DNA from: an uncultured Candidatus Saccharibacteria bacterium
Lineage (GTDB): Bacteria; Patescibacteriota; Minisyncoccia; Phycocordibacterales; JAKFXT01
Assembly (NCBI GenBank): GCA_964385825.1
Contig: CAYLPX010000001.1
Location: 271,959 to 335,958 of the forward strand
DNA length: 64,000 bases
Reading direction: 5' to 3'
Each line of letters starts with the position of its first letter. Position 1 is the stretch's first letter. The notes beneath the pieces are model-generated. The model worked only from the letters and a program-made list of their open reading frames with translations, did not search any database and had not been told where the DNA came from. This document shows, piece by piece, positions 9,507 through 53,765 of this stretch. The position numbers and the translations under genes are program-made.

Positions 9507-9597
9507 AAGTATAAAAATTAGTATAAAATAGTCTGATCTGCTCTTTCCAGACTTTGCGAGAGCGGTCTTTTTTATTTACCCACAACTGGAGGTAGCC

Positions 9598-10230
9598 ATG
9601 CAGGGAAAAACAACTGCCGGCCAATCGGCTGGCAAGAAGGACATGGGGGCGCTGTTTGCCTCGCTCAAAGCCGGGGACATGTTGATGATTCCCTGCAACG
9701 AGTGTGGCGAGGCCCATACCCACGATTTTGCCGTTCTCAAGACCGAGCAGCACGACGGCGGAATCAAGATCTGGATTTCAAACCCAAACCCCGGAAAGCA
9801 TCATCTGCTCATGCCAGGGGTCAACCCTCTGTCGTGGGAGGCGGACAAGAAGATCATCTTGGACCGGGATGGTGACGAGTTCCCACTCGAAACCGGTGAC
9901 TTCCAGATCGAACGCGAGGCGGCCATGGCGGCTTACCAGAAACACATGGCTCTGCCGAAAATCCGCTGGCCGAAAGCGAAGATCACGAAAGACGACATCA
10001 ATACCGCACTCGAGGAACTCAAGCCGGGAAACATCGTCGATCAGATCCTCAACATGGCGGAGAACGGTGAATTGAAGACCACCGGGGAAATCGCGGCGCT
10101 GACTCTTGCCAATCTCGGCACCGAACCGACGCCAACATTGGTGGCCGCCGTGCTCAGCGTCAGCTTCCTTCTCAAGGAAATCGGGGAAGCGGCTGAGCTT
10201 TCGGTCAGGGTCGTAAGGATCCGCATGTAA
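9598..10230 (+). CDS. Hypothetical protein in GC-rich mini-island A
   Basis: ~60% GC versus ~40% in flanks, GGAGG ribosome-binding site 6 nt upstream, own terminator; CNECGEAH cysteine pair; no family recognised. Confidence 0.55.
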   Translation: MQGKTTAGQSAGKKDMGALFASLKAGDMLMIPCNECGEAHTHDFAVLKTEQHDGGIKIWISNPNPGKHHLLMPGVNPLSWEADKKIILDRDGDEFPLETGDFQIEREAAMAAYQKHMALPKIRWPKAKITKDDINTALEELKPGNIVDQILNMAENGELKTTGEIAALTLANLGTEPTPTLVAAVLSVSFLLKEIGEAAELSVRVVRIRM

Positions 10231-10247
10231 TCTGCCTCACGACGATC

Positions 10248-10275
10248 AAAGCCCGGCGCCAGCCGGGCTTTTTTT
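10248..10275 (+). terminator. Intrinsic terminator (gcccggc-GCCA-gccgggc followed by T7)
   Basis: Perfect GC stem plus T-run. Confidence 0.8.
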
Positions 10276-10285
10276 ATTTCTTATT

Positions 10286-11065
10286 TTATCGTTCTAAATT
10301 CTTTCGCAACACCACAAATGGTTCTTGCCCGTATGGATCCTTCCAGAACTCTACCTGCCAAGGGTGACCGGAATCTTCCACCATTTTTAAAATACGATCA
10401 TGCTGGTAAAAGTCAGCTTCCATATACAGTGTTCCTACTTCAGTAAGTAAATCCCAACCTTTAGTAATAATATAATTATGAAAATATGCCCCACCATCTG
10501 CAGCAAAGAAGGCTAGATGAGGTTCATAGTCCCGCTGTTCCGGATCAAGGTCCTTAAGTGCCTCGGGCGGAATATATGGTGGGTTAGCAACTATGGCATC
10601 ATACTGTCCGGTTAATCCGTCAAAACCATCAGCTGTAAATACTTTCACTCGACTCTTCTCTATATTATTCAGCTCCACACTTTTTTCTATTTGCTCTTTA
10701 AGATCGGGTTGGAGTTCTGATATCTCAACGTAAGAAGTGGGCAAATTCACAAGTAGTGCGAGTCCGATGCAACCTGAGCCAGAAAAGGTGTCCGCGAGGC
10801 GCAGTCGCCTCGCGGACTTTCTTTCAACTTCTTTTAACTCTCCAATTGCCCGCTCCACCCAAAAGGCAGTCTCCTCACGCGGAATCATCGGGTGATGTGA
10901 AAGATCTACCTTAGCCCCCAAAAAATCAACCACACCGAGCACATAAGCAAGCGGTTCTCCACTCTCTAGGCGCGCCACATCCTTTTTAAATTCTGCCCTA
11001 TCCGCATTCCCCCCATACTTAATAAGCTTCACCTGCTCTTTAGCACCCTCTAGATCGTAATACAT
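10286..11065 (-). CDS. prmC: Release-factor glutamine N5-methyltransferase PrmC/HemK
   Basis: NPPY motif (VANPPYIP) and GEPLAYVLG...F motif; start at the internal Met because the upstream part of the ORF covers a terminator hairpin at 11096-11125. Confidence 0.8.
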   Translation of the reverse strand: MYYDLEGAKEQVKLIKYGGNADRAEFKKDVARLESGEPLAYVLGVVDFLGAKVDLSHHPMIPREETAFWVERAIGELKEVERKSARRLRLADTFSGSGCIGLALLVNLPTSYVEISELQPDLKEQIEKSVELNNIEKSRVKVFTADGFDGLTGQYDAIVANPPYIPPEALKDLDPEQRDYEPHLAFFAADGGAYFHNYIITKGWDLLTEVGTLYMEADFYQHDRILKMVEDSGHPWQVEFWKDPYGQEPFVVLRKNLER

Positions 11066-13902: not shown

Positions 13903-14012
13903 AGGTTTCTTGTATTAAAAATACAAGCTAGTAAACCTGCATTAGCTCCTCGGCTCGGAAATAAAAGAGGTTACTTTTTTATTTCTCTCGCTCTACGTCG
14001 CGAATAAAAAAC

Positions 14013-14043
14013 AGCCCAAGCGCTCCCGCGCTTGGGCTGTTTG
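14013..14043 (-). terminator. Intrinsic terminator of the GC-rich lipoprotein gene (cagcccaagcgc-TCCC-gcgcttgggctg)
   Basis: 12-bp perfect stem; A6 on the plus strand gives a T-run on the minus transcript. Confidence 0.75.
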
Positions 14044-14057
14044 CATCCGGACCACCC

Positions 14058-14657
14058 CTACGTTCGCTTCGGCTGTCGGCTGGAGAGGTAAAGCCAAACG
14101 GCGAAGCCTCCGGCAGCAAAGCCGAAGACGAGAGTGGCCACGGCTAGGCCAAAACCACCGACCATCGCCTTGAATTCAGGAGTGAAAACATCCACCCTAT
14201 TTTCAACCGGCGGAGCCGAGGTGAGGGATGTTGTCATCCCTTGCGGCAGTCGCGCTTCGAGCTTGTACTCATTGCTGGTAGGAGCTCCCTCGCCATCCGC
14301 GCTGTCGCCCGCCTTCGCTCCCTTCGCCGAGGAGCCGCCGCCCACGGTCACGTGGTCAATGAAGAAGGTGTAGTGGGTTTCCCCCACCTTCCTGGCAGCA
14401 CTGGTTTCCCAGCCCGCCTTCGGGGCTTTCTGCACCACCTTTTTCCTCGGGTAGACGTCGACGACGTAAGGCGCCGACAAAACCGAGGCTGCGGGGGCTT
14501 TTGCCACCGGAGGTGGGACGGGCTCACTCGGCTGGAATTCGTACGCCGCCGAAGGTGCCGCACGCCGGGTATCCCCGACGGAACCCATCTTGCTGGGACC
14601 GGCACCGGAACAGGCCGCAAGTATCGCGGCCAAAAAGACCGCCAAAAGACTGCGCAT
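14058..14657 (-). CDS. Lipoprotein with C-terminal TM anchor, GC-rich mini-island B
   Basis: ~62% GC with high GC3; GGAGGA ribosome-binding site 7 nt upstream of MRSLLAVFLAAILAAC (lipobox LAAC); Ala/Pro-rich. Confidence 0.6.
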   Translation of the reverse strand: MRSLLAVFLAAILAACSGAGPSKMGSVGDTRRAAPSAAYEFQPSEPVPPPVAKAPAASVLSAPYVVDVYPRKKVVQKAPKAGWETSAARKVGETHYTFFIDHVTVGGGSSAKGAKAGDSADGEGAPTSNEYKLEARLPQGMTTSLTSAPPVENRVDVFTPEFKAMVGGFGLAVATLVFGFAAGGFAVWLYLSSRQPKRT

Positions 14658-14823
14658 GGTGAATCCTCCAAGCAACCCCTACAAGGATTGCTTACAAAAA
14701 AAGAAAAGGTGTTGTAGCACCGTCTAGAGAATAAATTACCACTAAAATACAGAAAGTCAATGGTCTCTCTCTAAGCTAAAAACCTCGCAGGTAAGCCATT
14801 TTTTTGATATTCTTTGGAGTACT

Positions 14824-28468: not shown

Positions 28469-28822
28469 GGTTCTTGTTGGATAACCGCGCTTAGCCCTTT
28501 TGGGGCTTAGTGAGGAAAGTCCGGGCATAGCTAGGCTTTAGCCTAGAGCACGGTAGCGGGTAACCCCCGTCTGTGGCAACACAAGAGGTGCGAACAGTGA
28601 CGCTGATGTCGAAAGGCTAGGTTCCCTCTTATTTAGTTAAGGGAAAATCTTGTTGAAAAACAAGGGTGCAACGGCAAAATCCTTACCACTATGCAAGGCC
28701 GTGCTCTGGGGCAACCCAGAGAGTGCCGCTTGAGCCCATCAGCAATGGTGGGCCTAGATAAATGGTTATCGTTTTGTTTCGCAAGAAATGAAATACAGAA
28801 CCCGGCTTATAGGCAGGAACAC
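28469..28822 (+). ncRNA. rnpB: RNase P RNA (bacterial type A)
   Basis: P4 halves GAGGAAAGTCCGGGC and ACAGAACCCGGCTTA; GCTTGAGCC...GGGCCTAGATAAATGG matches the E. coli P15-P18 region; P1 pairs ggttcttg with caggaac. Confidence 0.85.
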
Positions 28823-28830
28823 AACAATGG

Positions 28831-29183: not shown

Positions 29184-29310
29184 AGCGACACCTCCATGGA
29201 GTTGAAATAACCATATCAGTATAACAAAAAATCTTTTTCAAAAAAACACTTGCGCAAATCCCCAGTAGTGCTATGGTTTCTCTATATCAACCCTCCCTAG
29301 GGAGTTCTTC

Positions 29311-29670
29311 ATGTACAAAGCTATCATTCGCCGGCGCGGGAGTAATGAACTTGCCACTGTCCCTGCTGATTCGCCCAGCCTCCGCTGCGCCTTCATCATG
29401 CACGAGGATAAGACCTGGTCCCCCGCGACCAACCTTCGACTCCGAATCCCCGTCAACCAGCACAAGGAAGTTGATCTTGGCAACGAATCGGGAGAAGCGG
29501 TTGAGGTCCTCCTGATCTACAACAGTGCGACAAACGAAGGTGAGCAGTCCATGATTTGCTTCGCCCAAAACTTCGGCCGGAGAGAGATTGAGGTCCGGGA
29601 GACTCTCAAGGGACTCGCGGCCAGAAACAGGACTCCCCCACTCGTCACTGCTCACGGCTGGCCCCAGTAG
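29311..29670 (+). CDS. Hypothetical protein, GC-rich mini-island E
   Basis: GC3 about 70% in this frame; AGGGAG ribosome-binding site; terminator at 29685-29715; the antisense ORF is rejected. Confidence 0.5.
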   Translation: MYKAIIRRRGSNELATVPADSPSLRCAFIMHEDKTWSPATNLRLRIPVNQHKEVDLGNESGEAVEVLLIYNSATNEGEQSMICFAQNFGRREIEVRETLKGLAARNRTPPLVTAHGWPQ

Positions 29671-29684
29671 GGCTTCTGTGAGCA

Positions 29685-29715
29685 CAAAAAACCGCCGGTC
29701 CCCCGGCGGTTTTTC
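29685..29715 (+). terminator. Intrinsic terminator (accgccgg-TCCC-ccggcggt plus T-tract)
   Basis: aaaaaaccgccggtcccccggcggtttttc. Confidence 0.8.
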
Positions 29716-29889
29716 AATTTCTTATAGCTAAAATGTAGACAAATTTTATTTTAGTATCCTAACATTGTGGGTAGTTGTGGATAAAAGGGTGTATTAATGC
29801 TTATATGGCTTATAATGAACCAAGTAAGCATAAGCGCATGCAATGCTTGCGGATAAAAAGCCACAGTTGATATTTGAGAGACAAAATCG

Positions 29890-29972
29890 TACCGGTGACG
29901 GGATTTGAACCCGCAATCCAGCCAGGAGCTAGTTCCGTAAACTAGTGCGTATACCAATTTCGCCACACCGGC
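29890..29972 (-). tRNA. Class II (long variable arm) tRNA, Leu-like body; anticodon reads ACG in my manual fold; identity uncertain
   Basis: Acceptor GCCGGTG/CACCGGT (G1-U72), D arm GCG-AAATTGGTATA-CGC, anticodon stem CTAGT/ACTAG with loop TTACGGA, 14-nt variable arm, T arm GCGGG-TTCAAAT-CCCGT, discriminator A. Confidence 0.6.
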
Positions 29973-36532: not shown

Positions 36533-36913
36533 ATGTTTGAAAATTTAGGAACCAGTGATTTTGGAGACAACCCTGAAAAACAAGGGGTTCTTATTCATTC
36601 TGAGGAAAACGAAGGGGGTATAAACCCCGAGGTAATTATGGAGTTAAGTGGTGCTTGGAAAGAATTGCATGCAAAACTTGAGACAATGACTCCTGTCCAA
36701 AAAATGGAAAATCTGAATGAAACACTTGATGAATTAATCAGAATAGCAAGAACTTACATCACTCATGTTAACGGTGGCACTTTTCCAACCGGAGTCTACA
36801 CAACAACGAGAGACATGCTCGCGCACCTTGAAGGAGACGATGAGTCCACACTATTTAATGGACTTACAAAAACCTACGACGAAATACTAAGCCTGCTTGG
36901 CAAGAAAAAATAA
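36533..36913 (+). CDS. Hypothetical acidic protein
   Basis: 126-aa ORF. Confidence 0.4.
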   Translation: MFENLGTSDFGDNPEKQGVLIHSEENEGGINPEVIMELSGAWKELHAKLETMTPVQKMENLNETLDELIRIARTYITHVNGGTFPTGVYTTTRDMLAHLEGDDESTLFNGLTKTYDEILSLLGKKK

Positions 36914-36940
36914 AAAAGACCGCGCACTTCGTGCGCGGTC
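36913..36940 (-). terminator. Intrinsic terminator (gaccgcgcac-TTC-gtgcgcggtc) for the GC-rich gene 36957-37220
   Basis: 10-bp perfect stem; A6 on the plus side gives a T-run on the minus transcript. Confidence 0.75.
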
Positions 36941-36956
36941 ACTCGAGGATGGAAGC

Positions 36957-37220
36957 TCAGCGAATGAGCCTTGGCCTCCTCTTGCTGTCCCCGAACCCCT
37001 TGGCGGGGTCAAACTTGTGCTTGGGGTGGTCGTAGTACGGCTGGTGACTGCCAGCCTGCGCTACGTCACTAACCACCCCATCCTGTGCATGCTGGCGCGC
37101 CATTTTGGCGGCCACATCAACATGCCCCGCATCCTCCGGGTCAAAGGCCACGTAGGCCTGTCCCGGAAAATGGAACGCCTTAGGAGACGCATTCGCCCCC
37201 AACTTCTTTGATTCCCCCAT
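36957..37220 (-). CDS. Hypothetical small protein, GC-rich mini-island F
   Basis: AAGGAGG ribosome-binding site 6 nt upstream of ATG; GC-rich; own terminator. Confidence 0.5.
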   Translation of the reverse strand: MGESKKLGANASPKAFHFPGQAYVAFDPEDAGHVDVAAKMARQHAQDGVVSDVAQAGSHQPYYDHPKHKFDPAKGFGDSKRRPRLIR

Positions 37221-37359
37221 GGATCCCTCCTTGGAAAAGGGGTTAGAAAAAACGAAATGAGCCCTAAGCTCCGAAATATATTATATCATATATATACAAA
37301 AAAGCAAGTCATCACGACCTGCTCGGGAATTCAGAAAATCTCATTTCGCTAAGGTATTT

Positions 37360-37664: not shown

Positions 37665-37692
37665 ATTAGAAATAAAAGAAGCCGCGCTTACG
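37665..37692 (-). terminator. Intrinsic terminator (gccgcgc-TTAC-gcgcggc) for the GC-rich gene 37716-38141
   Basis: GC stem with A-tract on the plus side. Confidence 0.75.
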
Positions 37693-37715
37693 CGCGGCCT
37701 TACCCTACCCGACTT

Positions 37716-38141
37716 TCAGCCGACAAACTTGCGAAGGTCGACCGTAGTTGCACGAATCGACGGCCTTCGGGAACCAAGCTGCCTCTTCGGCTTCACCTTG
37801 ATGGGAGGTGCCGGAACAGCTTTCCCGTCGAGTAAACTTGCAGAAAGCAGTGACATCGACCCACGCGGGAGCTGATCAAGGAACCGAGCAAACCATGGCT
37901 GCTTCATGTTCCACCGCCGCTCTTCCGCATCGATGATCTCGAGCACGGGATCGCGTGTCCCCAAAGCATCGCTCGTCACTGGGAGTTCGAGCCCCATGCT
38001 GTCCATCGCAACCAGAGGTTCCTCTGGCTCGTCCGCATCAGGAAGAACCACCGACACGTATCCATCCGGGAATCGGCTCGATACCCTGTTCCAGCGCCCG
38101 GTACTGCTGTTCCACACTTGATGCATGGGAATTCCCCCCAA
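37716..38141 (-). CDS. Hypothetical protein, GC-rich mini-island G
   Basis: GC-rich ORF with terminator; start MGGIP or MHQVW. Confidence 0.45.
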   Translation of the reverse strand: MGGIPMHQVWNSSTGRWNRVSSRFPDGYVSVVLPDADEPEEPLVAMDSMGLELPVTSDALGTRDPVLEIIDAEERRWNMKQPWFARFLDQLPRGSMSLLSASLLDGKAVPAPPIKVKPKRQLGSRRPSIRATTVDLRKFVG

Positions 38142-38230
38142 GACAAAGTACGGTTTAATTACGAAAAGATCGGCCTAAGCCTGCCTGATATTTAACCACT
38201 ATCGTGTAAGAAGTCAAAGCTTTTTGTTCA

Positions 38231-40483: not shown

Positions 40484-40557
40484 TAATATACGGGGTATTG
40501 CTTTTTAATGGAAATATGTTATAAATTACCCCAGGACCACATGGCCAAGGAGGCCAA

Positions 40558-40741
40558 GATGAAAACTGTTCTGATTTTGGCACTGGTGGGGGTCATCTCC
40601 GCCTGTGCCGAACCGACCATGCGAAGCACGGTCACCCCCGTCACCGGGGAAAAGACCCCGGAGGGAGGAGTGCGGTTCAACCCTGCACAATCAAGCCCTC
40701 CACCCATCGTCGTCATCGGGGAGAAGGAGGCAAGGCGCTAG
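40558..40741 (+). CDS. Small lipoprotein (61 aa), GC-rich mini-island H
   Basis: AAGGAGG ribosome-binding site; MKTVLILALVGVISAC lipobox; Pro-rich tail; perfect terminator 40763-40795. Confidence 0.5.
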
Positions 40742-40762
40742 GGGAAGTAAAACCCTTCTCGC

Positions 40763-40795
40763 AAAAGGCCGATGCGCGTGCGCATCGGCCTTTTT
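40763..40795 (+). terminator. Intrinsic terminator (aggccgatgcgc-GT-gcgcatcggcct plus T5)
   Basis: 12-bp perfect stem. Confidence 0.8.
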
Positions 40796-40823
40796 ACTTT
40801 TTATATTTTCCCTCCCCCTACAT

Positions 40824-42473
40824 TTAATATCCCATTCCTCCCATTCCAGGATTTCCACCCTCTGCTTTCTCCTCCTTTGGTTCATCAGTAATAGCTACTT
40901 CCGTAGTGAGCATAATAGCGGCTGCAGAACAAGCGTTCTCAACCCCAGAGCGAGTTACTTTGACCGGATCTATAATCCCGGACGCAATCATATCGGGAAC
41001 CATTTCATCCATAGCCGCATCATATCCAGCATTCCCCTTAGCTTCCTTTACCTTCTCAACAATAACCGCGCCATCATCCTTACCCGCATTAATAGCAATC
41101 TGACGAAGTGGCATTTCAAGTGCTCGCAGTACTATCCCCACACCCACTTCAAACTCCTTAGCAAAACTTGTTCCCTCACTTTTTGGCATCTTACTTGCTA
41201 CTTTTTCAGCTGCCTTGATAAGAGCAACTCCACCACCAACTACAATCCCCTCTTCTATCGCGGCCTTAGTCGCATTAACAGCGTCCTCAATCTTAAGCTT
41301 AAGATACTTCATCTCGGTTTCAGTCGCCGCTCCAACTTTAATAACAGCCACACCCCCTGAGAGCTTTGCAATACGCTCATCTATCTTTTCAATATCATAT
41401 TTAGAAGTTGTCCCTTTCTTCTGGGTCTTAAGCGATGCAATACGGGCGTCAATATCTGAACGCTTACCCTTACCACCCACCACAATAGTATTGTCTTTAG
41501 TTGCAATCACTTTATTCGCACGACCGAGCATACTGATTTCTGCTTTCTCAAGAGTGATACCCGTCTCATCAGTTATCACTGTAGCCCCGATAGTTGTTGC
41601 GAGGTCCTGAAGTAATTCCTTTTTGCGATCACCATACCCTGGTGCCTTCACGGCCAAAATATTAAACGTACCGCGAATCTTATTTAGTACAAACGCGGTG
41701 AGAGCTTCACCTTCCACTTCTTCGGCAACAATCACAAGCTCCTTCTTGCCGGAGTTCGCGATTTGTTCAAGCAAAGGAAGTATTTCTTTAAGGGTAGAAA
41801 TCTTTTTGTCAGTAAGGAGTACATAGGCATCTTTGTAGACTGCTTCCATACGCTCCCCGTCAGTAACCATGTAGGCTGAAACGTATCCACGATCGAACTG
41901 TAACCCTTCGACAAACTCAGCCTCAACACCGAAAGAGTGTGATTCCTCAACTGTTACTACTCCATCCTTACCCACCTTCTCAATAGTGTCAGCAATAATA
42001 GTACCAATCTCGCGACTCTCAGCTGAGATGGTTGCTACCTGCATAATATCTTCCTTACCTTTAACTGGCTTAGCCATAGCTTTAAGAGCCTGAACTACTG
42101 CTTCGCTAGCCTTCTCAATACCCATACGGATACCCATAGCATTCACCCCCATGGCAGTTTGCTTCACACCCTCTTTTACAATCGCTTGCATGAGTACTGT
42201 TGCGGTAGTAGTACCATCTCCAGCTGCATCATTAGTTTTGTTGGCTACTTCTTTCGCAATTTCAGCACCCATATTCTCAAACTTATCTTTGAGCACAATT
42301 TCGCGAGCAATAGACACCCCGTCATTTGTGATAGTGGGAGCTCCGTATCCTTTATCAAACACCACATTACGCCCTCGAGGACCAATGGTTATTTTAACGG
42401 CATCAGCCACAGCATCCACTCCTTTCATAAGAGCTTCACGCGCCTTTTCGTGATAGAGAATTTGTTTTGCCAT
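40824..42473 (-). CDS. groEL: Chaperonin GroEL
   Basis: Full-length Hsp60 with a C-terminal GGM-type repeat tail. Confidence 0.97.
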   Translation of the reverse strand: MAKQILYHEKAREALMKGVDAVADAVKITIGPRGRNVVFDKGYGAPTITNDGVSIAREIVLKDKFENMGAEIAKEVANKTNDAAGDGTTTATVLMQAIVKEGVKQTAMGVNAMGIRMGIEKASEAVVQALKAMAKPVKGKEDIMQVATISAESREIGTIIADTIEKVGKDGVVTVEESHSFGVEAEFVEGLQFDRGYVSAYMVTDGERMEAVYKDAYVLLTDKKISTLKEILPLLEQIANSGKKELVIVAEEVEGEALTAFVLNKIRGTFNILAVKAPGYGDRKKELLQDLATTIGATVITDETGITLEKAEISMLGRANKVIATKDNTIVVGGKGKRSDIDARIASLKTQKKGTTSKYDIEKIDERIAKLSGGVAVIKVGAATETEMKYLKLKIEDAVNATKAAIEEGIVVGGGVALIKAAEKVASKMPKSEGTSFAKEFEVGVGIVLRALEMPLRQIAINAGKDDGAVIVEKVKEAKGNAGYDAAMDEMVPDMIASGIIDPVKVTRSGVENACSAAAIMLTTEVAITDEPKEEKAEGGNPGMGGMGY

Positions 42474-43382: not shown

Positions 43383-43631
43383 ATGGACACCATTTTCAAT
43401 GTACTCACGGTTACGTGGCATTACACATGCCTCATACTGCCGTGGTGGATGATCGGCCTCGTGCCCATCATTCTCCCTATCCCAAACCCAACCCCAGGAA
43501 GGATCATTCTCGGGGAAAAGTGGTGGCATATCCCGAATGGAAAAGAGCTCCTCCTGGGACTCGTCCGCGGAGTCGCCCTTTTCGCCGGCCTCTGGCTGCT
43601 CATTTGGGTGCTCGCTCAGATCGCCAACTGA
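43383..43631 (+). CDS. Small Trp-rich membrane protein, GC-rich mini-island J
   Basis: AGGAGA ribosome-binding site; GC-rich; identical terminator module downstream. Confidence 0.45.
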   Translation: MDTIFNVLTVTWHYTCLILPWWMIGLVPIILPIPNPTPGRIILGEKWWHIPNGKELLLGLVRGVALFAGLWLLIWVLAQIAN

Positions 43632-43632
43632 C

Positions 43633-43670
43633 CCCCGCGAAGGCCGCCTTCGCGGGGCCTTTGTTTGTAT
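43633..43670 (+). terminator. 38-bp terminator module, copy 2
   Basis: Identical to 43288-43325. Confidence 0.8.
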
Positions 43671-43691
43671 TTTTGACTCTTTTTTGGTCTT

Positions 43692-43940
43692 TTGTTATAC
43701 TGTTTTCCAATGCAATTACTATCTACGGTTATGTCGTATGTACAAGTCGTACTAGCGGTACTCCTTATTGGAGGCATACTACTTCAACAACGAGGCGCAG
43801 GTCTCGGTGGTGCTTTTGGCGCTGACAGTACATTTGGCTATAACACAAGACGGGGTGCAGAAAAAATTATCTTTGAAGCTACCATTATTCTTTCGGTCCT
43901 TTTTGTCGCAAGCGCCGTTATTACGCTTATTATCAAATAG
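43692..43940 (+). CDS. secG: Preprotein translocase subunit SecG
   Basis: VLAVLLIGGILLQQRGAGLGGAFG is the SecG signature (LLQ..G.GLG..FG); two TM helices. Confidence 0.7.
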   Translation: MLYCFPMQLLSTVMSYVQVVLAVLLIGGILLQQRGAGLGGAFGADSTFGYNTRRGAEKIIFEATIILSVLFVASAVITLIIK

Positions 43941-44076: not shown

Positions 44077-45849
44077 GTGAACCCATTTGACCCTTCTTTA
44101 AAAAAACATAGTCCGCTTAAACCACTCCGCGTAACTGGTATTGTAAAACGAGCTCTCGGACACTTTTCTCTCTTTGAGCGCAGTGTATTTTACATACTAG
44201 CCCTTATTATGGGTATCACTGCACTTACCCTACTTTTACGAGTAAACAACCTCTTCACTACTCCTATCCCTATGCTAGGAGGCGAACTACGAGAGGGTGT
44301 TATTGGTTCTGCGCGATTCATTAACCCTGTGCTTGCAGTGTCTGATTCCGATCGTGACCTCACAACACTTATTTATTCAGGCCTCACACGCTCACTCCCT
44401 GACGGTTCCATCGTTCCAGATTTGGCAAGTAGCTATTCTATAGAAGATAACGGTAAGACCTATGATTTCAAATTAAAAGATGCAGTCACCTTCCACGACG
44501 GCAAGCCCGTTACTGCAAGTGATGTTGAATATACTATTCAAAAGATCCAAGATCCTGCAATCAAAAGTCCGAAACGTCCTAATTGGGATGGGGTTACTGT
44601 TGAGAAAGTAAATGAAAAGGAAATTAAGTTTCACTTAAAGCAAGCCTACGCACCTTTTCTCCTCAACACCAATATTGGAATCCTGCCAAAACATATTTGG
44701 AAAGATGCTACTGCTGATGAATTCCCACTATCACTCTACAACTTTGAGCCTATAGGCTCAGGTCCCTATAGCGTAACTTCAATTGACCACAACAGTGCCG
44801 GCCTACCACTTGCTTACACGCTTTCACCATTTAAAAACTACGCGCTCGGCAGCCCTCACATTAAAACCATTACTTTTTCCTTCTTTCCGAACGAGCAAAG
44901 TCTCTTTGATGCCTATACTAAAAAGACTATAGATAGCATTCATAGTGTTAGTCCCGATAAGTTAGATGCGCTAAAGCGTACTGATACTCATATAGAAACA
45001 GCGACCCTTCCTCGTGTCTTTGCTATTTTCTTCAACCAGAATGAAAACCCGGTATTCACCGATATCAATGTTCGCAAGGCGCTAGATATGGTTACCCCTA
45101 AACAAGAAATCGTGAACAAGGTTTTCAATGGATATGGCACAGTTAACAATGGTCCATTACCACCTGAACTTGCTACATCTTCTACTCCAACCATTTCCCT
45201 AACCCCAGACTTAACACTTAACAATGCACGAGCGCTGCTTGCAAAATCTGGCTGGGTCTACAACGAGCAAACTCATGTAGTAGAAAAAACAATTAAAACC
45301 AAAAAGAAAACCGAAACCCAAACACTTTCTTTCTCACTCTCAACTGCTGATACCCCTGAACTTAAAGAAACTGCCCAGCTACTCAAAGCAGCCTGGGAAA
45401 AACTAGGGGCTACGGTTGATGTAAAAGTTTTTGAAGGAGGAGATCTCAACCAAAACATTATTCGCCCGCGCAAATACGACACACTTCTTTTTGGTGAAGT
45501 AGTTGGGCGAGACTTAGACCTCTATGCTTTCTGGCACTCAAGCCAGCGCAACGACCCCGGACTTAATGTTGCCATGTACACCAATGCCAAAACCGATAAA
45601 ATGCTTGAACTTGCTAGAACCCTAGAAACAGATAGCGATCGCATTGCGCAGTATCAAGCCTTTGCTATAGAACTAACGAAAGAAACTCCTGCCATATTCC
45701 TCTACTCTCCACAGTTCATCTACCTTTTACCTAACACTATTAATGATGTAACTCTCAAAAACATAACCATACCTTCAGAGCGGTTTGCGAATGTATATGA
45801 GTGGTATATAGACACAGAACGTGTATGGAAAGTATTTGCTAAGCATTAA
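44077..45849 (+). CDS. ABC transporter substrate-binding protein, family 5 (peptide/nickel type)
   Basis: 590 aa with an N-terminal TM anchor; SBP_bac_5-like blocks. Confidence 0.75.
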   Translation: MNPFDPSLKKHSPLKPLRVTGIVKRALGHFSLFERSVFYILALIMGITALTLLLRVNNLFTTPIPMLGGELREGVIGSARFINPVLAVSDSDRDLTTLIYSGLTRSLPDGSIVPDLASSYSIEDNGKTYDFKLKDAVTFHDGKPVTASDVEYTIQKIQDPAIKSPKRPNWDGVTVEKVNEKEIKFHLKQAYAPFLLNTNIGILPKHIWKDATADEFPLSLYNFEPIGSGPYSVTSIDHNSAGLPLAYTLSPFKNYALGSPHIKTITFSFFPNEQSLFDAYTKKTIDSIHSVSPDKLDALKRTDTHIETATLPRVFAIFFNQNENPVFTDINVRKALDMVTPKQEIVNKVFNGYGTVNNGPLPPELATSSTPTISLTPDLTLNNARALLAKSGWVYNEQTHVVEKTIKTKKKTETQTLSFSLSTADTPELKETAQLLKAAWEKLGATVDVKVFEGGDLNQNIIRPRKYDTLLFGEVVGRDLDLYAFWHSSQRNDPGLNVAMYTNAKTDKMLELARTLETDSDRIAQYQAFAIELTKETPAIFLYSPQFIYLLPNTINDVTLKNITIPSERFANVYEWYIDTERVWKVFAKH

Positions 45850-45896
45850 AAAGATTACAAAAATTATTATTAAACACGATAGATAACTATTACTTT

Positions 45897-47864
45897 ATGA
45901 ATGATCAACAAAACAATTCTGGAACTCCGCACAGTCCAAGGTCTCCTCGTACACCACGAAGCGCCTCACATGGAAGAACACCACACACACGAAGTGCTGC
46001 GGATCACGCTGGCGCTTCACACACTGCGCGTCCACCACGAACAGGAAGCCGTGGAGGGGCCCGCCAAGGTGGGGCCGGTGGACGAGGCCGATCTCGTTCT
46101 CGCTTCCCAGAGCGAGCACCATTTTCTCCACGCGAGGATGCTTCCAAAATCACCACCCCAACCGCCCTCAAGGATATGCTACCAGCACCAGACGCTGATA
46201 CGTTCCGCATTATTCCACTTGGTGGAGTAGAGGAAGTAGGTCGCAACATGACCGTTGTTGAACTTCATAACGATATCTTTGTGCTTGATTGCGGTTTCCA
46301 ATTCACCCCAGAGAGTGATGCTCCTGGTATTGATTACATTCTGCCCAACACCAAATACCTTGAGGATCGCAAAGAACGCATAAAAGGAGTAATCATTACC
46401 CACGGACACTTGGATCACATTGGAGGCATTCCTTACATCATGGACCGTATTGGTAACCCACCTATTTATACCCGCTACCTCACCAGTCTTATGATTTTGA
46501 AGCGTAATGCTGAATTCCCTCACCTCTCACCAAGCAACATTATTGTGGTAGAACCAGGTCAAAAAGTAACTGCGGGAGATACGCCTATTTCCTTCTTCCC
46601 AGTTACTCACTCCATACCGGACGCTATGGGCGTAGTTATTGAAACCAAGCATGGCAACATCGTCTTCACGGGAGACTTAAAACTAGATCACGAGAATGGT
46701 ATACCAACTGAAGAAGAAGCTAAGCGTTGGGACAATCTCAATAAGCAAAAAAATGTGTTCTTCGCTGCAGACTCTACCAACACCGAGCGCCCTGGGTTCT
46801 CTATTACTGAGCGTCAGGTATATGACACCCTAGAAGATATCATTAAAAATACTAAGGGTCGCCTCATCATTGGAACATTCGCTTCGCAGTTCGAACGCAT
46901 GATCAAAATCATCGAAGTTGCAGCTAAGTATAACCGCAAGATTGTAACTGAGGGACGAAGTATTCGCACCAACATTGAAATCGCCAAAGAAGGTGGAATC
47001 CTAAATGTTGATGAAAGTATCTTTATTACTTCAGATCAAATACCGAACTACCCACCAGATCGTATACTCATTCTAGCGACTGGTGCGCAGGGAGAGGAGT
47101 TCGCGGCACTCAATCGTATTGCCAGCAAGAAAGACAAGAATATTTTCTTTACTGAGCAGGACACTGTTGTGCTTTCCTCCTCAGTTATCCCAGGAAACGA
47201 AATTTCTGTGCAGAAACTCAAAGACAATCTCTACCGTCACAATCTAAAAATCATTCACTACCGTGTGTCGGATGTGCACTCTACAGGACATGGAAATGCT
47301 GGGGAACTTGTCTGGATCAACCAAAAGGTTAACGCTAAGTTCTTCATGCCTTCCTATGGTTTCCGCTCTATGACCACTTGCCACGCTCGAGCAGTGATTG
47401 ATGCTGGTTTTCCTAAAGAAAACGTGGTGCTCGCTGACAACGGTACTATTATTGAAATTAAAAACGGCACGGAAATGCAAGTCCTCAAAGAAAAAGCTCC
47501 TTCAACTCCACTTATGGTTGATGGCTTCTCTATTGGAGACATGCAGGAAGTTGTCATCCGAGACCGCCAAACCCTCTCCAAAGATGGTATGTTCGTCATT
47601 ATTGGTTCAGTGAACCCTCGTACAGGAAAACTACGTAAGTCACCTGACATTATTTCCCGCGGCTTCGTATATCTACGAGAATCACAAGAACTTTTGAACC
47701 AAACGAGACTAATCGTTAAGAAAACTATTGAAGATACTACTGTTGGCATGAATCCAATTAATCTTGAGTACACCAAAAATGCGCTCGTTGATAATGTATC
47801 TCGTTTTCTATTCCAAAAAACTAACAAACGTCCGATTGTTATTCCCGTTTTAATCGGCCTATAA
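45897..47864 (+). CDS. rnj: Ribonuclease J (metallo-beta-lactamase / beta-CASP); an alternative start at 46176 gives the canonical N-terminus
   Basis: IIPLGGVEEVGRNMTVVE, HGHLDHIG, beta-CASP motifs; the 93-codon Arg/Ser/Gly-rich 5' extension lies in a 250-bp GC-rich block. Confidence 0.85.
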   Translation: MNDQQNNSGTPHSPRSPRTPRSASHGRTPHTRSAADHAGASHTARPPRTGSRGGARQGGAGGRGRSRSRFPERAPFSPREDASKITTPTALKDMLPAPDADTFRIIPLGGVEEVGRNMTVVELHNDIFVLDCGFQFTPESDAPGIDYILPNTKYLEDRKERIKGVIITHGHLDHIGGIPYIMDRIGNPPIYTRYLTSLMILKRNAEFPHLSPSNIIVVEPGQKVTAGDTPISFFPVTHSIPDAMGVVIETKHGNIVFTGDLKLDHENGIPTEEEAKRWDNLNKQKNVFFAADSTNTERPGFSITERQVYDTLEDIIKNTKGRLIIGTFASQFERMIKIIEVAAKYNRKIVTEGRSIRTNIEIAKEGGILNVDESIFITSDQIPNYPPDRILILATGAQGEEFAALNRIASKKDKNIFFTEQDTVVLSSSVIPGNEISVQKLKDNLYRHNLKIIHYRVSDVHSTGHGNAGELVWINQKVNAKFFMPSYGFRSMTTCHARAVIDAGFPKENVVLADNGTIIEIKNGTEMQVLKEKAPSTPLMVDGFSIGDMQEVVIRDRQTLSKDGMFVIIGSVNPRTGKLRKSPDIISRGFVYLRESQELLNQTRLIVKKTIEDTTVGMNPINLEYTKNALVDNVSRFLFQKTNKRPIVIPVLIGL

Positions 47865-47876
47865 GTGGCTTATACA

Positions 47877-51771: not shown

Positions 51772-52146
51772 ATGCAAGTTTACAAGGCCTTTGTAGTTGA
51801 AGGTGGGGTGCTGAAGAGCCTTTCGGCGACTGGCCCCCTAGAGCACATCTACAAATTCAGGGAATGGAGTCAATTGCTCCCCTGGCAGGAACAACATGGG
51901 CTTGGCTTCTTTGCCTTCGAAGATCTGGAGGCCGCTCACCATGCGCTCGGAAAGGGGGGTTACATTGCAGTATGCGAAACTACCGAGCTCCTGTCGCGCC
52001 CCAGAGCACTCCTTTCGCAGGAACAACATCCGCCAAAGGATCTATCTGTGGGGCGAATCCTCACATACCTTGACCCTTGCATCGTGGAGATGGTTGAGCC
52101 CGGCACTATTTGGTGCAGGGATATCCGCCCACTCAACTGGGCTTAA
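51772..52146 (+). CDS. Hypothetical protein, GC-rich mini-island K
   Basis: GGAGAG ribosome-binding site; GC-rich; terminator 52147-52205. Confidence 0.45.
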   Translation: MQVYKAFVVEGGVLKSLSATGPLEHIYKFREWSQLLPWQEQHGLGFFAFEDLEAAHHALGKGGYIAVCETTELLSRPRALLSQEQHPPKDLSVGRILTYLDPCIVEMVEPGTIWCRDIRPLNWA

Positions 52147-53231
52147 CGCCCCAGTTTTTCCAACCGAAGCCCCAAGAGCCTGATCGCCAGGCGCTTGGGG
52201 TTTTCCTTTTTTTCAAAGAAAGGTAAGAGAAGTTTTAGTGCTGTCAAAGAAAGTTGGCGAGAAGAGGTAATCGGGGTACTAAGAGTAATCCCTCTGGTTT
52301 TCGTTTCAAAATCAGAAAAACGAGCAATAAGTGTTACCTTCCTAGCTTCTTTAAAACCTGCTTTTTGTAATTTGCCAAAAAGGGTTTCTGCCGTCCTTTC
52401 CATATACTTAGTTGCCTCTTTAAGCGTTGCAATATCGTCATGAAACGTTTCTTCTTCTCCTATTGATTTCGCCACAGCTGCTTCTGTTTGTATTTCCCGA
52501 TCATCCTCTCCAAGCGCGTATTGCTCTAACTTCTTGCTATATACCCCTAGAGTCTTTTTTAGCGTTTCTCCGTTAGCTTTTCGTATATCGTGCACTGTAA
52601 AAATTTTCATTCGTTTTAAAACCTCATCCGTTTTTTCACCAACACCAGGAAGCACCGCAGCCTTAAGAGGAGCAAGAAAATTCAAAGTCTCATGAGATGG
52701 GACTACTACCAGCCCAAGTGGCTTTTTCATATCCGAGGCAATTTTTGCTACCAGCTTATTTTTCCCAATACCAATTGAACAGGTAAGCTTTTCTGTTTCT
52801 AATATTTCTGCCTGTATCTGTTTAGCTAGTACTGCTGCTTCCTTAAAAGTTTTGCAAAATGAAAGATCTGCATACCCCTCATCAATACTCGTTTCCTCAA
52901 ACACCGGTGCATACTTCTTAATTATTTTAAACACTTTTTGCGAGACTGCTCCATACTTACGAAAAGCAGGAGTGATGAAAATAACCTCAGGGTTTCCAGA
53001 CTTTTTTGCAGCTTGGCTTAGCTTCCACGCGCGAGTAATAGGCAGCCCTGCATGTAGGCCATAAGCACGTGCCAGATAATTCGCGGTAGCAATAACTCCG
53101 CGCCCCCTCCCACCCTCAGGATCTGCTCCTACAGCAATAGGCATTCCGGCCAAATACGGTTTATCCCGCTCCTCCACCGAAGCAAAGAAAGCATTCATAT
53201 CTATATGTGCAATAATTTTCTCTATTTTCAC
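52143..53231 (-). CDS. dinB: DNA polymerase IV (DinB)
   Basis: IAHIDMNAFFASVE N-terminus; Y-family palm blocks. Confidence 0.9.
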   Translation of the reverse strand: MKIEKIIAHIDMNAFFASVEERDKPYLAGMPIAVGADPEGGRGRGVIATANYLARAYGLHAGLPITRAWKLSQAAKKSGNPEVIFITPAFRKYGAVSQKVFKIIKKYAPVFEETSIDEGYADLSFCKTFKEAAVLAKQIQAEILETEKLTCSIGIGKNKLVAKIASDMKKPLGLVVVPSHETLNFLAPLKAAVLPGVGEKTDEVLKRMKIFTVHDIRKANGETLKKTLGVYSKKLEQYALGEDDREIQTEAAVAKSIGEEETFHDDIATLKEATKYMERTAETLFGKLQKAGFKEARKVTLIARFSDFETKTRGITLSTPITSSRQLSLTALKLLLPFFEKKENPKRLAIRLLGLRLEKLGR

Positions 53232-53267
53232 CTACTCAGTATAGTTAAAAACTAATTTTAAAATAAC

Positions 53268-53297
53268 GTTGACCCATCACTACTTCTAAGCTACAGT
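53268..53297 (+). promoter_or_regulatory. Candidate sigma70 promoter (TTGACC, 18-nt spacer, TACAGT) for the GC-rich gene
   Basis: Hexamers upstream of the GAGGAGG ribosome-binding site. Confidence 0.35.
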
Positions 53298-53327
53298 TGG
53301 GGTCGCTTGTTCACTGAGGAGGCCACC

Positions 53328-53765
53328 ATGTGGCAACGCATCAAAAAGGCTTGGCGCGTACTACGTGCGCCCCATGAGCAGACTGCGAAATGGGTGTATG
53401 TCGCCCACCCCATCCGTGGAGACATTGCGGGGAACCTGCAAAAGCTGATAGAGATCCGAAGGGAGATCATTTAGCAAGGGCACATCCCCGTCATCCCCTA
53501 CTTGGCCCCGCTTGAAATCCTCCGCGATTACATCGAGGCGGAGCGGACCCAAGGGATGATGATCAACTTCGCCTACCTTCGCTCCGGTATGGTGGATGAA
53601 CTCTGGCTCTATGGGGATACAATATCTAACGGCATGTGGGCCGAAATCAAAACGGCCATCACGATGGGAATCCGGGTTGTTCCAAAGACCCCAGGCACTC
53701 TGCACTGTTGCCAAGAAGCGCAAGATCGAGGGATCATTGCGCAATTCATGCGAAGTGTCCAGTAA
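53328..53765 (+). pseudogene. GC-rich gene (mini-island L) interrupted by a single in-frame TAG at 53472-53474
   Basis: A 48-codon ORF and a 87-codon ORF share one frame with uniformly high GC3, a GAGGAGG ribosome-binding site, and a terminator at 53775-53808; the conceptual product is 145 aa (VYVAHPIRGD...). Confidence 0.4.

Follow-up and report, generated by a model that had tools for sequence, protein, structure and literature searches.

What is the GC-rich block at the 5' end of the RNase J gene (rnj) of an uncultured Candidatus Saccharibacteria bacterium, and does it belong to that gene at all? The locus lies within a 64,000-nucleotide stretch of contig CAYLPX010000001.1 (assembly GCA_964385825.1, positions 271,959 to 335,958), hereinafter the window, whose numbering is used throughout. 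Measured in 150-bp segments, the content of guanine plus cytosine (GC) is about 0.64 at 45920-46160, some 3.5 standard deviations above the window mean of 0.44. A preliminary description, made from the sequence alone, recorded this block, the RS/RG/P-rich, basic, low-complexity tail that can be read in translation from codons 8-90 of the rnj frame, an open reading frame (ORF) at 45901-46230 and an internal ATG at 46176, all of which are indeed present. To account for them, it offered two explanations: either RNase J carries a disordered RS-like extension made from foreign DNA that is read out of frame, or a small GC-rich gene overlaps the true start of rnj. The evidence bears out a disordered extension, but neither a foreign origin nor an overlapping gene. 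The block is very probably native coding sequence, translated from ATG 45897 into a disordered N-terminal extension of RNase J of about 92 residues. As judged from comparison with related genomes, this extension appears to be shared throughout the lineage and quite ordinary for the RNase J of Paceibacteria-type Patescibacteria. The features that the argument requires from the outset are the following.

45897 to 47864, plus strand: rnj (RNase J, 655 amino acids plus stop), starting with ATG 45897; identified from the ORF list, Pfam, a PDB match and gene order.
45897 to 46172, plus strand: predicted intrinsically disordered, polycationic N-terminal tail, residues 1-92, coinciding with the GC-rich block (AlphaFold2, composition and structure alignments).
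46044 to 46106, plus strand: RG/RS-rich core of the tail, GSRGGARQGGAGGRGRSRSRF in translation, within which GGRGRSRSRF is identical in the protein P0001 of the closest relative.
46104 to 46208, plus strand: linker between the tail and the catalytic core, FPERAPFSPREDASKITTPTALKDMLPAPDADTFR, the best-conserved part of the extension.
45943 to 45960 and 46024 to 46041, plus strand: pair of 18-nt direct repeats encoding P-R-x-P-R, the sole repeat found in 45700-46400, located inside the tail rather than flanking it.

An RNase J with an N-terminal extension predicted to be disordered

From about residue 100 onward, the encoded protein is, by its sequence, unambiguously an RNase J, with every family feature that we looked for in place. 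The Lactamase_B, RNase_J_b_CASP and RNase_J_C domains are detected at residues 114-271, 320-445 and 553-653, respectively (PF00753/PF12706; PF22505, E=1e-40; PF17770, E=1e-21). The core motif IIPLGG begins at residue 105, and the zinc-binding HxHxDH motif is present as THGHLDH (residues 168-174), with H169, H171, D173 and H174 invariant across an alignment of 46 sequences. Solved RNase J structures match the core over its full length, with E-values from 5e-123, for the Bacillus subtilis RNase J1 chain 3zq4_A, to 1e-80. The gene order SecG, SBP_bac_5, rnj, MFS is kept in relatives, as examined in the three closest ones.

So what precedes this core? The alignments with solved RNase J chains begin only at residues 95-104 of the query and, therefore, the first 92 or so residues are an extra N-terminal segment. 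In an AlphaFold2 model built from the 46-sequence alignment, the predicted local distance difference test score (pLDDT) of residues 1-92 is 31-40 and no secondary structure is formed; the score climbs from residue 93, and the core is modelled with confidence. The model is thus consistent with intrinsic disorder of residues 1-92. The 104 residues before the core include 16 R, 13 P, 13 A, 12 S, 11 G, 10 T and 5 H, with a net charge of +10, nearly no hydrophobic residues (a fraction of 0.08) and almost no lysine. The RG clusters of the tail, one SRGG and one GGRGRSRSR, lie within 21 residues and are too few to make up a classical tri-RGG box. The linker aligns nearly residue for residue with that of P0001, and the junction P.PD.DT.R is kept across 20 relatives.

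The extension in related bacteria

If the tail is a genuine part of the protein, how far does it extend among the relatives of this bacterium? The best 120 homologues, which all come from Patescibacteria or from Paceibacteria-type metagenome genomes and are 60-88% identical to the window protein, include 114 with an R/P/G/S-rich, basic N-terminal tail of at least 57 residues (57-228) in the rnj frame; the few short N-termini look like miscalled starts or fragments. A further set of 86 loci comprised the window, five loci from metagenomes and 80 drawn from GTDB species-representative genomes. Of these, 83 encode a tail that is 50 or more residues long (median 93, range 79-228), with a mean arginine fraction of 0.17, a mean lysine fraction of 0.02, a net charge between +9 and +37 and a hydrophobic fraction of 0.11. 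The pattern of RG clusters is matched in 31 of the 83. The comparison of RNase J N-termini that the preliminary description had proposed comes out with orthologues that keep the extension in the rnj frame, the very result that it had named as refuting its reading.

The tail evolves much faster than the core. Against the closest relative (L001/P0001), the core is 96% identical and the tail 58% identical. Both proteins begin with MND.Q and share the stretch GGRGRSRSRFP[ED]RAPF.PREDASKI..PTA.KDMLP.PD..TFR. The amino acid divergence of the tail is about ten times that of the core (dN 0.36 vs 0.03). In comparisons with every available relative the synonymous sites are saturated, such that dS is undefined and only the proportions of nonsynonymous and synonymous differences (pN and pS) are reported; for the tail these are 0.28 and 0.78. 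What appears to be kept while the sequence itself drifts fast is a length of about 80-110 residues, low hydrophobicity and a charge of about +0.125 per residue.

Two motifs recur among the 83 Paceibacteria-type tails. The motif M..APAPAPAP starts 56 of them, and the basic motif R[RQ]I[QR]R[IT]LRR, for example RPGRVSRQIRRTLRRP or RPGGASRRIQRILRRP, is found in 47, about 25-30 residues before the core. Both could be short linear motifs involved in protein interactions or RNA binding. A third motif, RR..R.YHAR, is located near the N-terminus in the sister proteins P0005, P0006, P0010-P0012 and P0014, and is missing in the window protein.

Beyond the close relatives, we searched 1.84 billion cluster representatives at 50% identity and took the best 150 RNase J sequences, in 144 of which the start of the core could be aligned. 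Of these 144 diverse representatives, 62 have an N-terminal extension that is 50 or more residues long (up to 360). The net charge is at least +8 in 56 of the 62; 30 are arginine-rich and 31 lysine-rich. Whether arginine or lysine is used correlates weakly with genome composition, as approximated by the GARP/FYMINK ratio of the core (rho 0.16, p=0.04), too weakly to build a conclusion on. The taxonomic breadth of these distant tail-bearing representatives is only partly established: among ten that were looked up, one is assigned to a named organism, the lysine-rich representative from Candidatus Avanaerovorax (Bacillota). An exception of a different kind is P0187, with an extension of 184 residues, a net charge of -10 and a hydrophobic fraction of 0.31, which is possibly a folded extra domain.

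Base composition of the block and the possibility of a foreign origin

Could the block nevertheless be GC-rich DNA of foreign or mobile origin that was inserted recently and that the rnj frame crosses by chance without a stop? The local GC content that sets it apart and the existence of further GC-rich islands in the window might favour such an origin. However, GC is distributed very unevenly over the codon positions: for rnj codons 8-90, GC1, GC2 and GC3 (the GC content of the first, second and third codon positions) are 0.67, 0.83 and 0.35, compared with 0.53, 0.35 and 0.42 in the remainder of rnj. To obtain an expectation, the tail's own amino acids were repeatedly encoded with synonymous codons drawn from the codon usage of 16 long genes of the window. 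The observed total GC of the tail is 0.583 vs the expected 0.588±0.016, and its GC3 is 0.365 vs 0.383±0.045. Both values match the resampling and, therefore, the protein sequence alone explains the GC island as well as its low GC3; GC is high because the codons for R (CGN), P (CCN), G (GGN) and A (GCN) have G or C at positions 1 and 2. The preliminary description was thus right that GC3 in the rnj frame is low (0.35-0.37) but not in taking this value for an anomaly.

The same holds across the lineage. GC1 and GC2 of the tail are near 0.73 and 0.73 throughout the tail-bearing loci, whereas GC3 of the tail tracks that of its own core (r=0.83), which ranges between 0.36 and 0.93 among the genomes. 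The tail follows the core of each genome in this respect and, therefore, behaves as native translated sequence.

The other traces of an insertion were sought as well. No flanking direct or inverted repeats were found around the block (45700-46400), nor any tandem repeats within it, and blastn yielded no DNA match of the block to the rest of the window, related loci, phages or plasmids. Furthermore, 83 of the 86 loci have a tail in this very place, synteny is kept in the three closest relatives, and the C-terminal half of the tail aligns residue for residue with that of the closest relative. Taken together with the native codon usage, these observations make a foreign or mobile insertion extremely improbable and, so far as the sequence goes, effectively refute it. 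Of the first proposal of the preliminary description, then, the disordered basic extension stands, and the foreign, out-of-frame origin falls, given the native GC3 and the lack of flanking repeats.

Some further observations concern codon choice. The region 45897-46208 favours A-ending codons (A at third positions 0.35 vs 0.24 expected; T at third positions 0.29 vs 0.38), with proline encoded by CCA in 11 of 13 codons and arginine by CGA in 6 of 16. Among the 83 tail-bearing loci, tail GC3 averages 0.146 below core GC3; in the window, the lower GC3 of the tail agrees with the way in which R, P, G, A, S and T are usually encoded, and in the high-GC genomes the same codon usage, or selection against structure in the 5' mRNA, may contribute.

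As for the other GC-rich islands, about ten further stretches of the window exceed 0.55 GC in 200-bp segments, with a maximum of 0.67 around 14400. They include 9552-10296, 13939-14734, 29251-29742, 36866-37278, 37666-38189, 40505-40836, 43390-43709, 51796-52209 and 53266-53704. An arginine-rich tail of a recognisable gene was found in none of the other GC-rich stretches of the window; the only other R-rich tails lie opposite longer ORFs of the other strand, in frames that are presumably non-coding. Two ORFs in these islands have no Pfam match, one at 9598-10230 (plus strand, 210 residues), which has upstream of it a Shine-Dalgarno motif, GGAGG, of a kind seldom seen in this genome, and one at 14058-14675 (minus strand, 205 residues) with hydrophobic N- and C-terminal segments. 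Both may be lineage-specific or acquired genes.

Alternative reading frames

The second proposal, of a small GC-rich gene that overlaps the 5' end of rnj, with the true start of RNase J at ATG 46176, involves the following ORFs, all of which we interpret as by-products of composition.

45901 to 46230, plus strand: ORF of 109 residues with an ATG, in an alternative frame (no Pfam match, no homologue, openness reproduced by resampling).
45895 to 46131, minus strand: ORF of 78 residues, from the ORF list (no Pfam match).
46004 to 46249, minus strand: ORF of 81 residues, from the ORF list (no Pfam match).

A long ORF with an ATG does exist, then, the 45901 frame is largely open in relatives too (88, 143 and 101 codons), and an in-frame methionine stands before the catalytic core, all of which could be read as signs of a second gene. 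But how much openness should be expected by chance? When the tail was resampled synonymously 5000 times, the 45901 frame came out as open as observed, or more so, in 49% of the cases. The reason is that its stops need T at position 2 of the rnj codons, and such codons are rare in a sequence without hydrophobic residues: T occupies position 2 in 0.08 of the tail codons vs 0.32 of the core codons. The openness of the same frame in relatives is likewise expected from composition alone. The open lengths of the minus-strand frames vary among relatives.

The substitution pattern points in the same direction. In global alignments with the closest relative, the translation of the rnj frame scores 260, whereas the other frames score 12.5 (45901) and 80; the scores of the alternative-frame product span 12.5-28, compared with 92-260 in the rnj frame. 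The differences from the closest relative number 37, 23 and 69 at codon positions 1, 2 and 3. A gene in the 45901 frame would be expected to vary most at its own third position, rnj position 1, yet this is not the most variable one (37 vs 69 at rnj position 3). Synonymous change in the rnj frame is not suppressed either, with 69 of 103 third positions differing and pS values of 0.78 in the tail and 0.74 in the core. The synonymous sites of the tail are as saturated as those of the core and, therefore, no second, overlapping constraint is visible.

Nor do database searches reveal such a gene. A Pfam scan of the three alternative ORFs gave no match, and no homologue of the 45901 translation was found among 5.8 billion protein clusters. 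The impression that this translation looks like a real protein accordingly did not survive, and the claim that the +2 frame has the highest GC3 turns out to be incorrect: the third positions of that frame coincide with rnj position 1, with GC of 0.66-0.67, and the remaining frame, whose third positions coincide with rnj position 2, is higher, at 0.72-0.83. With the methionine upstream of the core replaced by other residues in relatives (see below), we consider the overlapping gene extremely improbable and, as far as such comparisons can tell, effectively refuted. A further frame, starting from 45899, contains 2 stops in the window vs 5.8 expected (p about 0.04), and 7-14 stops in relatives. 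We considered it as a coding frame and rejected it, as it is closed in relatives by these stops; the low count in the window is attributed to the excess of A-ending codons.

The GC island and the apparently good alternative ORF are thus what a disordered segment rich in arginine, proline and glycine is expected to leave in the DNA. Any such block can be recognised by a native GC3, by the lack of T at position 2 and by high GC at the first two codon positions, and this signature can help to avert false calls of an overlapping gene or a foreign insert.

The translation start

Where does translation of RNase J begin? Two further features bear on this question.

46176 to 46178, plus strand: internal ATG (Met94), which precedes MLPAPDADTFRIIPLGG; not a conserved start codon.
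45850 to 45896, plus strand: AT-rich intergenic spacer of 47 bp between the SBP_bac_5 gene and rnj, without a Shine-Dalgarno motif.

The preliminary description took ATG 46176 for a canonical RNase J start. However, the position of Met94 is occupied by L, I or V in relatives, with methionine only in the window protein and in P0001, and 46176 is therefore not a conserved initiator. The sequence 5' of 46176 is C-rich, unlike the AT-rich upstream regions of the other genes in the window. Upstream of 45897, the sequence is AT-rich and has no Shine-Dalgarno motif, which is typical of this genome, and a spacer of the same AT-rich type directly precedes the tail-encoding ATG in relatives. Of about 40 genes of the window, most are preceded by an AT-rich region in which the last 30 nt before the start hold no Shine-Dalgarno-like motif, which suggests that initiation in this organism is largely independent of Shine-Dalgarno sequences.

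The region could also be seen as an untranslated 5' leader or a structured regulatory RNA, for example one involved in autoregulation, with translation starting at 46176. Such a possibility has some appeal, given the internal ATG and the fact that RNase genes are often autoregulated by way of leaders. The 5' untranslated region of RNase E is an example (PMC11321048). Yet the predicted fold of the region is unexceptional (z=-1.06, with 31 of 200 shuffled sequences as stable), and a scan of the window gave no Rfam match in it. Moreover, 83 of the 86 loci keep the frame open, with a median length of 93 codons (79-228) and a protein-like pattern of substitutions across codon positions, and the internal methionine is not conserved. 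We therefore regard an untranslated leader as highly improbable, and return to a translated extension that starts at ATG 45897.

Neighbouring genes and structural RNAs

Downstream of rnj, the listed start of the MFS transporter ORF, GTG 47865, abuts the rnj stop codon (47862-47867). Relatives have a gap of about 70 nt between rnj and the MFS gene (L001: 4983 to 5052) and, therefore, the true start in the window is probably located further downstream than GTG 47865. Elsewhere in the window, a bacterial class A RNase P RNA is found at 28469-28825 on the plus strand (128.9 bits), and ARAGORN detects a tRNA-Arg(ACG) at 29889-29972 on the minus strand, which at 84 nt is unusually long for a tRNA-Arg, perhaps owing to an insertion or a lengthened arm.

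What might the extension do?

If the tail is a translated and retained part of RNase J, what would it be for? The candidate phyla radiation (CPR) keeps rnj, rnc and pnp as conserved ribonucleases (PMC12641178) and, therefore, RNase J is likely to be central to RNA decay in these bacteria. A plausible role for the tail is that of an RNA-binding or scaffolding arm, an assignment for and against which we see the chances as about evenly balanced. The flexible, arginine-rich arm would bind RNA non-specifically by virtue of its charge and, in doing so, would raise the local substrate concentration or tether RNase J to ribosomes or rRNA. It might also serve as a multivalent platform for partner enzymes or for degradosome-like or condensate-like assemblies.

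Several considerations weigh against the picture of a translated and functional tail and should be set beside the evidence given above. The assignment of the translation start to ATG 45897 rests on sequence comparison. Constraint on the tail is visible only as a pN below pS and as retained composition. The clade of the window has neither M..APAPAPAP nor R[RQ]I[QR]R[IT]LRR, and any function that depends on these motifs may differ there. Finally, RNA binding, partner binding and condensation by the tail are properties that we purely infer. These points notwithstanding, a native, translated and disordered extension accommodates the composition, the substitution pattern and the distribution among relatives. 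Tails of this type are a reasonable target for the study of how RNA decay is organised in bacteria with minimal sets of RNases.

Comparison with known systems

With canonical RNase J proteins (B. subtilis J1/J2, Thermus thermophilus, Streptomyces coelicolor, Deinococcus radiodurans) the window protein shares the full-length core from about residue 100, including HGHLDH. The canonical proteins start 5-25 residues before the first beta-strand, whereas the window protein has about 92 extra, predicted disordered residues.

Eukaryotic RGG/RG boxes and RS domains offer a likeness of another kind. Motifs of the RG, RGG and RS types typically bind RNA, and the window tail has clusters of them (SRGG, GGRGRSRSR) in a context that is likewise predicted to be disordered. 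These amount, however, to only a few RG and RS dipeptides with no long RS array, and the resemblance is compositional only; we know of no SR-protein kinases or arginine methyltransferases that act on the window tail.

The closest counterpart is the extension of Helicobacter pylori RNase J (residues 1 to ~132/136), which belongs to the same enzyme and occupies the same place, upstream of the metallo-beta-lactamase domain. The two are alike in length (on the order of 100 residues), in predicted disorder and in being unresolved in structures. The 132-residue N-terminal disordered region of the H. pylori enzyme has been reported to be important for activity and proposed to drive the formation of degradosome foci (PMC10700544, PMC7492731). 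In a phmmer comparison, the H. pylori chain 8cgl_A aligns with the window protein only through residues 144-687 (query 102-649), and the tails have no detectable homology; the window tail, rich in R, P, G and S with almost no lysine, is unlike the Helicobacter extension. In our search of the literature, an N-terminal disordered extension of RNase J was described only for Helicobacter, where it is termed lineage-specific; because of this, the Helicobacter and Patescibacteria tails most likely arose independently. The wider distribution of such tails appears to be under-described, although the proteins themselves are already routinely annotated as RNase J.

In functional terms, the natural comparison is with RNase E, whose arginine-rich, disordered C-terminal domain scaffolds degradosomes and bacterial ribonucleoprotein bodies (BR-bodies) (PMC10412687, PMC11321048). 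Here, too, a disordered, arginine-rich region of low hydrophobicity is attached to the main nuclease of mRNA decay. The differences are that RNase J has the beta-CASP rather than the RNase E/G fold, that its tail is N-terminal rather than C-terminal and much shorter, and that the window tail has no recognisable partner-binding microdomains or membrane-targeting helix. A broader scheme can be proposed only tentatively, and we lean somewhat towards doubting it: polycationic RNase J tails, rather than being peculiar to Helicobacter, might be a widespread, repeatedly evolved module that, in Patescibacteria, organises RNA decay and nucleates a minimal degradosome or condensate. If this scheme holds, the tail in Patescibacteria would keep RNase J attached to RNA or ribosomes, in a manner similar to that of the C-terminal domain of RNase E elsewhere.

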